A stretch of DNA of 64,000 nt from Candidatus Poribacteria bacterium (GTDB taxonomy: Bacteria; Poribacteria; WGA-4E; JAJDTR01), in the NCBI GenBank assembly GCA_965222225.1, contig CBDCTK010000002.1, positions 4,064,001-4,128,000 of the forward strand, read 5' to 3'. Below are positions 11,123 to 17,498 of this stretch, piece by piece (position 1 is the first letter of the stretch; each line of letters starts with the position of its first letter). The notes beneath the pieces are model-generated. The model was given only the letters and a program-made list of their open reading frames with translations, made no database searches and was not told where the DNA came from. A program made the position numbers and the translations under genes.

Positions 11123-11254
11123 GAACAAGGGAATGGATAATGAGTGATCGCACGACCGAATAGAATCAAACGAGTGGATAGATCAAATGAGCGATTAGCA
11201 AGCTGGATTTACTATGGGAGTTCTATCGCACTCATTATTCATTCGCTTGATCCC
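11123..11254. repeat. Two oppositely oriented modular repeat arms between convergent genes
   Basis: 11123-11200 (-) and 11205-11254 (+). Confidence 0.8.
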
Positions 11255-11290
11255 TCCGATACGTGTCTACATTATTTAGGACGGTTCACC

Positions 11291-11333
11291 CATTACGTAT
11301 TACGTATTACGTATTACGCACTTACGCATTACT
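11291..11333 (+). repeat. Heptamer tandem repeat (ATTACGT)n
   Basis: cattacgtattacgtattacgtattacgcacttacgcattac. Confidence 0.8.
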
Positions 11334-11376
11334 CGCCTAACCCATCCCCTTTCCGACACAAAAGATACGTTCCCCT

Positions 11377-11865
11377 TCACCGCGAACCACCAGACTTAAT
11401 CCGCCCCCACTGCGTCAGACGATTTCCTTTGGGCGCAACCGCCAACGTCCTCCCAAGTGCGTAGCCTGCTCCATCCCATGCCGCTATTCCACCTTCCAAC
11501 ACTTTCAACCGCTCATGCGCATATCCGAATTCATCCATTAGCAATCGTGCCGCACGGGCACTTGTCGCTTCCGCAGGTCAGCTTCAGTAGAACACCATCA
11601 ACCCCTCTTTGGGAAGCTCCGCATGTCGCATTTCAAGCTGCGCAAGCGGAATAGAGACCGCGTCCGGAATATGCGCTTCTCTGTATGCCCGTTCGCTGCG
11701 AACATCCACCACTACTACCTTCGCTCCACTGTCAAGTAGGCGTTTGAGTTCTAGTGGCGCGATCCGCTCCGGCTCTTCCGCAAACCCGAGTATCCGAGTC
11801 AACGGGAGCAGACATAGGAACGCGATGCCAATGACGACGCTAAGATTCCTGTTCAATCGCTTCAT
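11377..11865 (-). CDS. Secreted rhodanese-domain protein, probable selenoprotein with UxU motif (U94, U96), 162 aa
   Basis: RBS AAGGAGG, signal peptide, VDVR..Y.EAHIPDA, then FY-TGA-S-TGA-PAEATSARAA...LEGGIAAWDGAGY and C-terminal AVAPKGNRLTQWGRIK, all in one frame. Confidence 0.85.
11540..11569 (-). promoter_or_regulatory. Candidate bacterial SECIS hairpin
   Basis: AGCGA-CAA-GTGCC-(CGTGC)-GGCAC-GA-TTGCT, starting 8 nt after the second UGA. Confidence 0.6.
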
Positions 11866-11930
11866 AACTAACCTCCTTTTGCAATGAGAGTTGACCGCAA
11901 ATCGCGACCATCTCCGAATGGCGACATCCT

Positions 11931-12029
11931 GTAGGTTGGGTTGAACAATCAAGCGAGTGGATAACAAGTAATCAAGGGAATGGATAATGACCGCGATAGA
12001 GTTCCCATAGAGATCCGGTGAAACCCAAC
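11931..12029. repeat. REP whose loop is a modular-repeat copy (11947-12016, minus strand)
   Basis: GTAGGTTGGGTTGAAC [modules] GGTGAAACCCAAC. Confidence 0.85.
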
Positions 12030-12283
12030 TATTCAGCTCCTTTCTAGTATACCATTGTATACAATTTCTGTCACCTGACAAACCACCTGTATCACCGAAG
12101 CCTTCAAGCTAGACAGCGGATTGTATACAGGCATTTTCACGTGTGCTATAATAGGCAACTTCCAATAACAAATCTCACATCTTGACCATAGCCTACGGCG
12201 CGCCGTCCCCGCTCTTGCCGGATTCCCAGTAGTAGGCATACTCCGCCGTGCCGTAACCCTTGTGCAGATTACGGCACGGCGGA

Positions 12284-12428
12284 GAATCAAGCGACTGAAT
12301 AAGGATCAGGGGAGTGGAAAGCGAGTGCGATAGAGATCTTAAGGCGATAGTAAATCCCGTGCGATAGAATTCCCATAGAGATCCCCGCGATAGAGATTTT
12401 TCTTGCACCGCCCGCGATAGAACTCCCC
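12284..12428 (-). repeat. Longest modular repeat copy (about 10 modules)
   Basis: Repeated GCGATAG.... units on the + strand. Confidence 0.85.
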
Positions 12429-16065: not shown

Positions 16066-16297
16066 GGGATCTCTATCGCGTGGGATCTACTATCGCACTC
16101 CCTATTCGGTCGTTTGATCCTATTCGGTCACTTGATCGCACCTACCGTTAGTACCTATTTAGGTTTGTGACATCGGCGGAGGTGAAGAGATTTCTATCGC
16201 AGTCACTTTGGGATTTACTATCGGGATTAGCTATCGCAGTCATTGTCCATTCCCTTGATCCTTCGCTATCCACTCAGTTGATCGTTCGTTTGATCCC
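16066..16297 (+). repeat. Two modular repeat copies (16066-16137, 16187-16297), each splitting a REP hairpin
   Basis: GTGCGGTTAGA[..]GCACCTAC and CGGCGGAGGTGAA[..]CCCCGCCTAC. Confidence 0.85.
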
Positions 16298-16734: not shown

Positions 16735-17439
16735 ATGAAGAAATTCGCATTTACAATGTCAGCAGTTTTCGTGCTATTGAGTGGTATTGTGATAATGATA
16801 AATCCATCGGCGCAAGAGACCGAACTAGCGCAGATCGTCTTCCACTCCAATCGGGACGGGAATAAAGAAATCTACGTCATGGACGCCGATGGGAACAATC
16901 TACGCAGGTTAACAACAAATCTATGGGCTGATTCCGATCCGGCATGGTCCCCTGATGGCCAAAAGATTGTCTACCATTCCACGTGGCGTGGGCGCCCTAC
17001 AGTCTTCGTCATGGATGCCGATGGTAACAATCAACAAAAGTTAACAAACAATAAAATTAGAGCGTTTGATTCAAGTCCGGCGTGGCCCCCTAGCGGTCAA
17101 AAGATTGCCTTAGTCTCCACCCGTGATGGCAACAAAGAAATCTACGTCATGGATCCCGACGGCGAGCATCAACTCAGACTAACAAACAATAAAAGGGATG
17201 ACAACTATCCAGCCTGGTCACCTGACGGTCAACAGATTGTTTTCGTGTCTAGGCGGGACGGGAACTTTGAAATCTACGTCATGAATTCCGATGGGAGGAA
17301 TCAAACTAGGCTGACAAACAATCCCGCTACGGACAGCGAACCGGCTTGGTTCGATCCCCGTTTTGCACGGGCGGTGGAGCCTCCAGGTAAGTTGAAGTCT
17401 ACCTGGGGAAAGATCAAGGGATATCAAAGGAAGGAATGA
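16735..17439 (+). CDS. Secreted TolB-like PD40-repeat protein with C-terminal AVEPxGKLxxTWGxIK motif
   Basis: Repeats of RDGNxEIYVM..G.N..RLT and PAWSPDG; signal peptide. Confidence 0.9.
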   Translation: MKKFAFTMSAVFVLLSGIVIMINPSAQETELAQIVFHSNRDGNKEIYVMDADGNNLRRLTTNLWADSDPAWSPDGQKIVYHSTWRGRPTVFVMDADGNNQQKLTNNKIRAFDSSPAWPPSGQKIALVSTRDGNKEIYVMDPDGEHQLRLTNNKRDDNYPAWSPDGQQIVFVSRRDGNFEIYVMNSDGRNQTRLTNNPATDSEPAWFDPRFARAVEPPGKLKSTWGKIKGYQRKE

Positions 17440-17498
17440 ATCAAGCGACCGATCAAGTGACCGAATAGGGAACGCGATAGAGTTCCCATAGAGATCCC
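17412..17498 (-). repeat. Modular repeat copy overlapping the 3' end of the TolB-like gene
   Basis: GATCAAG of the K-I-K codons runs directly into modules ending ...CCATAGAGATCCC. Confidence 0.75.

Follow-up and report, generated by a model that had tools for sequence, protein, structure and literature searches.

A rhodanese-like gene with two in-frame UGA codons and one conserved hairpin: a predicted double-selenocysteine protein of a Poribacteria-like sponge symbiont

The window analysed here, a stretch of 64,000 nucleotides (nt) from a Candidatus Poribacteria genome (assembly GCA_965222225.1, contig CBDCTK010000002.1, positions 4,064,001 to 4,128,000), carries on its minus strand a rhodanese-like gene that contains two in-frame TGA codons. 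It is highly probable that this is an intact gene for an exported single-domain rhodanese-like selenoprotein, both UGAs being read as selenocysteine (Sec, U) by means of one selenocysteine insertion sequence (SECIS) hairpin. An earlier note on this DNA had proposed a hidden rhodanese frame with a U-S-U motif running through two TGAs and ending at 11377, and had named as checks the selenocysteine machinery, an interchange of Cys and TGA among relatives and purifying selection downstream of the TGAs. The frame was recovered where it had been placed. The coding sequence extends from 11865 to 11377 (minus strand) and has 162 codons, with TGA at codons 94 and 96 and a third TGA as closing codon, and it starts with an ATG at 11865 which, by direct reading, is preceded by AAGGAGG. 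The open reading frame (ORF) list made with translation table 11 ends the gene at ...MVFY, before the first TGA, as the earlier note had also seen. Around the TGAs the frame reads ...KEGLMVFY TGA AGC TGA CCT GCG GAA GCG ACA AGT GCC CGT GCG GCA CGA, which gives the peptide Y-U-S-U-P-A-E-A-T-S-A-R-A-A at the active site. Downstream of both TGAs it runs via ...LEGGIAAWDGAGY...LAVAPKGNRLTQWGRIKSGGSR to the closing TGA, the read-through stretch after Y-U-S-U-PAEATSARAA being ...LKVLEGGIAAWDGAGYALGRTLAVAPKGNRLTQWGRIKSGGSR. Moreover, one Pfam rhodanese domain (PF00581) lies across both TGAs (residues 38-131, 56.8 bits against a cut-off of 22.2, E 3.2e-15). The features of the gene are as follows.

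11377..11865, minus strand: whole coding sequence, 162 codons plus terminal TGA; the orthologs, too, run to full length and share these TGAs
11779..11865, minus strand: predicted Sec-type signal peptide, residues 1-29 (sequence layout and AlphaFold2 model)
11473..11754, minus strand: rhodanese domain, residues 38-131 (Pfam PF00581, AlphaFold2, Foldseek)
11584..11586, minus strand: UGA 1, codon 94; predicted Sec, with Cys (TGT or TGC) at this place in 9 of the 34 orthologs read
11578..11580, minus strand: UGA 2, codon 96; TGA in 34 of 34 Sec-type orthologs, Cys in three CxC homologs
11547..11561, minus strand: SECIS core hairpin GUGCC-CGUGC-GGCAC, 5 base pairs (bp) with a 5-nt loop, identified by covariation
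11380..11445, minus strand: C-terminal tag, residues 141-162 (LAVAPKGNRLTQWGRIKSGGSR), a recurrent tail of the lineage
11377..11379, minus strand: terminal TGA, stop, without a conserved hairpin 3' of it

The genome analysed is that of a sponge symbiont (5.70-Mb assembly in 2 contigs, 94.9% complete). Together with 40 relatives it formed the first ortholog set, in which matches with E below 1e-30 were counted. This yielded 29 orthologs in 28 of the 41 genomes, every one with an in-frame TGA; the remaining 13 genomes (12 of the family labelled f2 and one incomplete genome of family f4) have only paralogs that are 30-44% identical and lack the TGA. Read by codon, 22 of the 29 are of the UxU form (Y-U-[S]-U); the other 7 come without exception from family f4 and have the CxU form (Y-C-[S/G]-U, with TGT or TGC). 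All 22 UxU orthologs terminate at TGA. A profile built from 26 orthologs was then run against all 176 genomes of the phylum and gave 48 matches that score 120.9 bits or more; they lie in 47 genomes, and every match contains one or two TGAs. The next match scored 75.4 bits and had no TGA, and the ordinary rhodanese paralogs begin there. Five distant orthologs, from other families and another class, were also read and comprise three UxU and two CxU forms. Among the 34 orthologs thus read the second site is TGA throughout, whereas at the first 25 have TGA and 9 have Cys; no sequence shows a frameshift or extra stop. Codon 94 has remained TGA in at least five families, between proteins of 40-80% identity.

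These counts bear on the possibility that the gene is a pseudogene, a former Cys-x-Cys rhodanese with two nonsense mutations. Such a reading could draw on public databases, since gene callers stop at the first TGA: in a collection of 5.8 billion proteins, 20 of the 21 best matches are ORFs of 92-93 residues ending there. Nevertheless, the TGAs recur in 48 orthologs from 47 genomes and hence are not two independent nonsense mutations, a coincidence that the earlier note had already thought improbable. The part after the TGAs is moreover under purifying selection. The ratio of nonsynonymous to synonymous substitution rates (dN/dS), calculated by the Nei-Gojobori method within three genera, is 0.27 in g1, 0.27 in g6 and 0.14 in g4 for the segment 3' of the second TGA, and 0.11, 0.18 and 0.20, respectively, 5' of the first TGA. 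The intact frames and the compensatory changes in the hairpin described below also refute decay, and a pseudogene can be set aside as extremely improbable. The synonymous rate is lower in the domain segment after the TGAs (0.32-0.52) than upstream (0.57-0.95), which fits an extra constraint at the RNA level in that segment.

Cys and Sec are interchanged at both positions, given the CxU orthologs on the one hand and, on the other, three homologs with a CxC motif (F-Y-C-S-C-P-A-E-E) that come from outside the phylum and are 41-43% identical. The latter were obtained by a back-translated search, one genome per species, have real Cys codons and belong to a metagenome-assembled genome (MAG) of Spirochaetota, to another of Candidatus Eisenbacteria and to a record whose title says no more than 'uncultured bacterium'. 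The earlier note had stated that the subfamily has YCxCPxExxSA at this place. This holds for YCSCPAEE in those three genomes of other lineages; within the phylum, the profile search of the 176 genomes gave no Cys-only ortholog. In a maximum-likelihood tree of 37 sequences the CxU forms stand in three places and the best tree needs three label changes. The well-supported branches force only one Cys/Sec change.

The genome has the complete machinery for selenocysteine, whose absence would have counted against the reading. A profile search found selA (523.9 bits), with selB directly downstream (wing-3 domain 69.9 bits) and tRNA-Sec directly after selB (76.1 bits against an Rfam gathering score of 47; ARAGORN reports tRNA-SeC with anticodon tca). 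The selD gene was also found (363.9 bits) and has one in-frame TGA of its own, in the usual N-terminal context ...ECAG-U-ASK, so that it is itself a selenoprotein gene; a hairpin with an 8-bp stem follows, its GGG loop 17 nt after the UGA. The gene lies outside the window, at G000:C2:2933348-2934274 (-). SelA is present in 171 of the 176 genomes of the phylum and for this reason does not discriminate carriers of the ortholog; in the largest family, f2, with 112 genomes, SelA is present and the rhodanese ortholog absent.

TGA is not reassigned in this genome: of the 3075 long ORFs, those with 250 codons or more, it closes 1096, and of the 93 ORFs with the C-terminal tag discussed below it closes 28, directly after the tail. 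A genome-wide reassignment of TGA to Trp or Gly might be suspected from two public records, P0002 and P0067, which show W at the positions in question. These stops refute it, and so do the closure of the rhodanese itself at TGA in the 22 UxU orthologs and the dedicated tRNA-Sec and SelB, leaving such a reassignment with hardly any probability. P0002 and P0067, the only full-length close records, give TGA as Trp (Y-W-S-W and Y-W-G-W) and because of this translation are taken to have been called under the wrong genetic code.

The hairpin, G11561-UGCC / CGUGC / GGCA-C11547, has the GTGCC/GGCAC stem that the earlier note had described, and its loop begins, as stated there, 27 nt after UGA 1 and 21 nt after UGA 2; the stem starts 22 and 16 nt after them. 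The loop has 5 nt with G at positions 2 and 4, the family form being [C/G/A]G[U/G][G/U]C. That the hairpin is more than chance is indicated by the comparison between genomes and not by the fold of the single sequence. The core is paired in all 34 sequences, and in the 31 distinct ones all 155 cells of the five pairs hold standard pairs. Pair 35-43 is C-G in 19, U-G in 10 and U-A in 2 of these, and pair 33-45 is U-A in 29 and C-G in 2, the C-G form having arisen through AGU>AGC in a Ser codon and GCA>GCG in an Ala codon, both synonymous. None of 500 shuffles reached the covariation score or the paired fraction, and controls in which the partner was slid pair in 20-67%. RNAalifold, given no structure, returned exactly the same five pairs and no others. 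In addition, when the 29 closer orthologs are aligned by codon over 66 nt, the third positions in the stem (columns 33, 36, 42 and 45) are invariant, compared with as many as four different bases at third positions outside it. The three CxC forms lack the hairpin at the corresponding place.

The lower stem AGCGA/UUGCU, which the earlier note had added to the hairpin, does form in the minimum free energy fold of this sequence; it is not conserved, only 69% of cells pairing in 26 distinct orthologous sequences, and it was rejected as part of the conserved element. The exact hairpin core was found in this gene only when the genome was searched and is accordingly not a sequence motif shared by the SECIS elements of the organism. 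A G-rich apical loop is common to the rhodanese hairpin and the selD hairpin. It was also observed that in one metagenome run (X5) the summed depth of contigs over 11542..11585 is 559-707 against 54 elsewhere in the gene (about ten times), and this peak is likely to come from contigs of related organisms that map only to the extremely conserved stretch of UGAs and SECIS.

Only one conserved, covarying hairpin lies 3' of the two UGAs, and the alignment revealed no additional conserved structure in the UxU forms, which agrees with the earlier suggestion that a single SECIS probably serves both codons. SelB and Sec-tRNA(Sec) would thus decode UGA 94 and UGA 96 under the direction of one hairpin within the coding sequence, and that hairpin would act twice, for UGAs two codons apart, with its loop at 27 and then at 21 nt. 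The third TGA comes 66 codons later; no conserved hairpin follows it, and there translation would terminate.

Conceivably only UGA 96 is decoded efficiently as Sec, and UGA 94 mostly terminates or is read as Cys or Trp by near-cognate decoding, in which case it would act as a selenium-dependent attenuator and no diselenide site would be formed. The protein works with Cys at residue 94, as the 9 orthologs with that residue indicate beside an unvarying TGA at codon 96, and the distance from hairpin to UGA 2 is the same in CxU and UxU forms, so that the hairpin may be tuned to UGA 2. However, a mostly aborting site would hardly have been kept as TGA in 25 of 34 orthologs from at least five families. 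Moreover, the bSECISearch model takes a UGA-to-loop range of 16-37 nt, within which both UGAs fall. We therefore consider it improbable that UGA 94 is not a Sec codon in practice.

The fold of the read-through product was predicted with AlphaFold2 from a 26-sequence alignment (mean predicted local distance difference test score, pLDDT, 81.9). The model consists of a lone helix (residues 2-26, pLDDT 54-70), a rhodanese core (31-140, above 90) and a disordered tail (143-162, below 50). Both U residues are placed in the loop 94-99, between the central beta-strand 89-93 and the helix 100-113. The best Foldseek match was 3nhv, BH2092 (E 2.3e-9, 32% identity, root-mean-square deviation 2.0, template modelling score 0.71 normalised to the target), and further matches were single-domain rhodaneses and rhodanese-fold domains including Cdc25-type members. 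Y93, A98, E99, S102 and W153 are among the residues invariant in the orthologs; the active-site loop U-P-A-E-A-T thus holds the invariant Glu99 and it has neither Arg nor Lys. Ungapped phmmer alignments place the catalytic Cys on residue 96 for domain 2 of 1yt8 (N-C-AGRTR-S) and domain 2 of 6mxv, which are C-X5-S/R rhodaneses. Nor does the protein resemble thiosulfate sulfurtransferases of the GlpE/PspE/RhdA type: with cut-offs of 102 bits, the GlpE model scores 20.9 and the PspE model 22.2.

Residue 96 is proposed as the nucleophile because it is Sec in every member, and residue 94 as its vicinal resolving partner because it is Sec or Cys. Residue 94 would be able to close an Se-Se or S-Se bridge, and the protein would have an extracytoplasmic site of C-x-C type for redox chemistry or for the transfer of sulfur or selenium. 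Such a role, with its bridge, is suggested by the resemblance to C-x-C sites and to periplasmic rhodaneses.

Several observations weigh against the reading put forward here. Considered alone in this sequence the hairpin is unremarkable, with z = -0.71 and 43 of 200 shuffles folding equally well, and its core is only 5 bp long. An Rfam scan of 11300-11950 on both strands returned no SECIS family and only a chance microRNA match (E 6.8). The spacing from UGA to stem in E. coli fdhF is 11 nt, so the distances of 22 and 16 nt are longer, and we know of no experiment in which one bacterial SECIS served two UGAs. Concerning the active site, phmmer puts the Cys on residue 94 for the closest structure, 3nhv (YCWGPAC), and for domain 1 of 6mxv; the alignments are therefore in conflict, and it is ambiguous whether 94 or 96 would correspond to the canonical catalytic position. 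Thiosulfate sulfurtransferases have after the catalytic Cys a six-residue loop with basic or hydrogen-bonding residues, a description that the loop U-P-A-E-A-T does not match. The gene neighbourhood is not conserved between families and offers no functional lead. Finally, a metagenomic relative, P0102, reads Y-C-S-R-PAE and so has Arg at the second site, which is otherwise always Sec; this may be a change of TGA to CGA, the copy may be inactive, or the Arg may point to residue 94 as the catalytic one. P0102 was, with P0002 and P0067, what proved informative in a profile search of 1.84 billion representatives, the top of which was swamped by multi-domain rhodanese repeats.

The product would be exported. 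Its N-terminus, MKRLNRNLSVVIGIAFLCLLPLTRILGFA|EEPERI, has a basic region, a hydrophobic core and a G-F-A motif, which is the layout of a Sec-type signal, and this layout is kept in the 29 aligned orthologs while the sequence drifts. Judging by this layout, cleavage would occur after residue 29. At the other end the orthologs have a conserved tail, AV-x-P-K-G-[K/N]-R-L-T-Q-W-G-R-I-K, which in the window protein is AVAPKGNRLTQWGRIKSGGSR. The earlier note had pointed to a C-terminal motif recurring in the window, and indeed two other ORFs of the window carry it (ends at 17439 and 27096, both on the plus strand). Its genome-wide consensus is ...AV-x-P-x-G-K-L-x-T-T-W-G-x-I-K plus 1-10 residues. 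The strict pattern is found in 93 ORFs, against 0-2 in shuffled tails, and the loose pattern in 138, against 17-29; the rhodanese is caught by the looser pattern only, since GN replaces the GK of the consensus. A crude heuristic assigns a signal-like N-terminus to 76 of the 93 strict-tail ORFs; among long ORFs as a whole it flags 32%. The tail has the look of a C-terminal tag, used across the lineage for sorting or anchoring. The rhodanese, exported by its Sec-type signal peptide and carrying this short disordered tag, would thereby belong to a set of about 90 tagged secreted proteins.

Taken as a whole, we find it rather more plausible than otherwise that a 5-bp SECIS used twice, at 27 and 21 nt, gives rise to a vicinal, diselenide-capable Sec-x-Sec site in an exported and tagged extracytoplasmic selenoenzyme of sponge symbionts, the first site of which may have changed between Cys and Sec on more than one occasion in the phylum.

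Further features upstream of the gene and in its hairpin region are the following.

12046..12081, minus strand: two overlapping sigma-70-like promoter matches, TTGTCA-16-TACAAT and GTGACA-17-TATACT (with TG), about 180 nt 5' of the start codon, from a consensus scan
11872..11878, minus strand: Shine-Dalgarno sequence AAGGAGG, 6 nt 5' of the ATG, read from the sequence
11540..11569, minus strand: optional lower stem AGCGA/UUGCU, from the minimum free energy fold of this sequence, not part of the conserved element

The promoter scan gave 5 matches in the region against 1.4 expected, which is no evidence of function. The gene is covered by contigs assembled from the RNA-seq libraries of three studies, and individual contigs reach across both TGAs and the hairpin, namely 11436-11812 (X18 record 6), 11306-11595 (X17 record 1) and 11563-11803 (X4 record 11). 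No differences are listed in them at 11547-11586, while strain differences are listed elsewhere. These contigs indicate no more than presence in RNA libraries; they tell nothing of strand, level or translation, and some may stem from carried-over DNA.

The neighbours of the gene differ between groups. Genus g1 has a Zn-dependent alcohol dehydrogenase upstream and a convergent propeller gene (pyrroloquinoline quinone, PQQ/PD40) downstream, and the neighbours in family f4 are sugar-isomerase-like and GFO/IDH genes. In genus g6 a class-I pyridine-nucleotide disulfide oxidoreductase of 494 residues lies 15 nt downstream of the UxU rhodanese in the same frame (L030:1-1482 (-)); it has the domains Pyr_redox_2 and Pyr_redox_dim but lacks a signal peptide, and only in this genus are the two genes paired. 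The long read-through frame of the rhodanese and oxidoreductase was seen in at least five g6 loci, the pattern having missed L032 and L038.

Regarding repeats, there is a short tandem run (GTAATAC)n at about 11290-11325. The rhodanese gene is also flanked, at 11950..12030 (-) and at about 11215-11260, by mutually inverted copies of a dispersed element about 46 nt long (core ...CTATGGGAACTCTATCGCGGTCATTATCCATTCCCTTGAT...), and further copies lie near 2074-2120, 12361-12384, 16231-16259 and 17473-17497. With 114 blastn matches genome-wide the element resembles an intergenic repeat of the repetitive extragenic palindromic (REP) or miniature inverted-repeat transposable element (MITE) type.

One consequence concerns annotation, as gene callers and public databases cut the gene to a fragment of 93 residues in nearly all of the closest records. 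For the mechanism, the two UGAs six nt apart, the single hairpin and the natural series of CxC, CxU and UxU forms amount to a clean test of the spacing tolerance and re-use of a SECIS. If our reading is true, the series would test the limit of the SECIS-UGA distance and re-use within two elongation cycles. As for biology, a predicted exported and probably redox-active selenoprotein is added to the tagged secretome of Poribacteria-like sponge symbionts. Nothing in this changes what is known in kind.

The gene very probably encodes a double-selenocysteine rhodanese, for which the comparative support is unusually clean; it represents a new clade, spread through the phylum in Poribacteria-like sponge symbionts, of a kind already described. 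One of the short database ORFs that end at the first TGA is named 'MAG: rhodanese-like domain-containing protein [Candidatus Poribacteria bacterium]'. A literature search on Poribacteria together with selenoproteins gave one paper, in which the phylum name occurs once. Neither 'rhodanese' nor 'Poribacteria' occurs in the main text of the BSepDB paper (PMC13326102); the supplements of these papers may list the clade. According to a 2026 review (PMC13188914), there are five forms of rhodanese selenoprotein, of which form 3 corresponds to NF041203 (CxU, one Sec) and form 5 to TsoB (UxxxxU, two Sec).

NF041203, rhodanese_LYCAU, is the best NCBIfam match for all 26 aligned members (best E-value 3e-23). 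The window protein scores 72.9 bits against it, below the curated cut-off of 115, and for this reason the clade is regarded as a sister of NF041203 and not as a member; the gene is likely to be left uncorrected wherever that model is relied on. The Y-C-x-U layout of NF041203, with Sec at the second position, is that of the CxU members of the clade, YC[S/G/T]U being present in 9 of 34 members. The window protein, in contrast, reads YUSU with Sec at both sites, and it has 162 residues including signal peptide and tag compared with 126 profile positions. The closest solved structure, BH2092 of Bacillus halodurans (PDB 3nhv/3o3w; phmmer E 2.6e-9), is a single-domain rhodanese from structural genomics that has an extended loop YCWGPAC, with Cys and not Sec and with its second Cys at +5 rather than +2. 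TsoB (NF045694), a rhodanese/DsbD fusion-like selenoprotein, shares with the window protein a rhodanese domain and two Sec, as far as its description in PMC13188914 goes. The match is nevertheless weak (20.9 bits against a cut-off of 805), the model being a fusion of 572 positions with another Sec spacing (UxxxxU).

The nearest precedent is the UxU rhodanese-related sulfurtransferase selenoprotein predicted in the delta-proteobacterial symbionts of Olavius algarvensis (Zhang and Gladyshev 2007, NAR 35:4952, PMC1976440). The earlier note had called a UxU form with a signal peptide and this C-terminal tag unusual; the UxU form as such is not, since a rhodanese selenoprotein of this form has been in print since 2007. 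As described in that paper, the Olavius protein has a rhodanese domain and two Sec codons one codon apart, was predicted computationally and belongs to host-associated bacteria, all as in the present case. It differs in coming from another phylum, the comparison being one of descriptions and not of sequences. The window protein has in addition a signal peptide and a C-terminal tag, neither of which is mentioned for the Olavius form in the passages of PMC1976440 consulted. The two forms are further alike in that the UxU form of Olavius arose, as may be the case here, from a form with one Sec.

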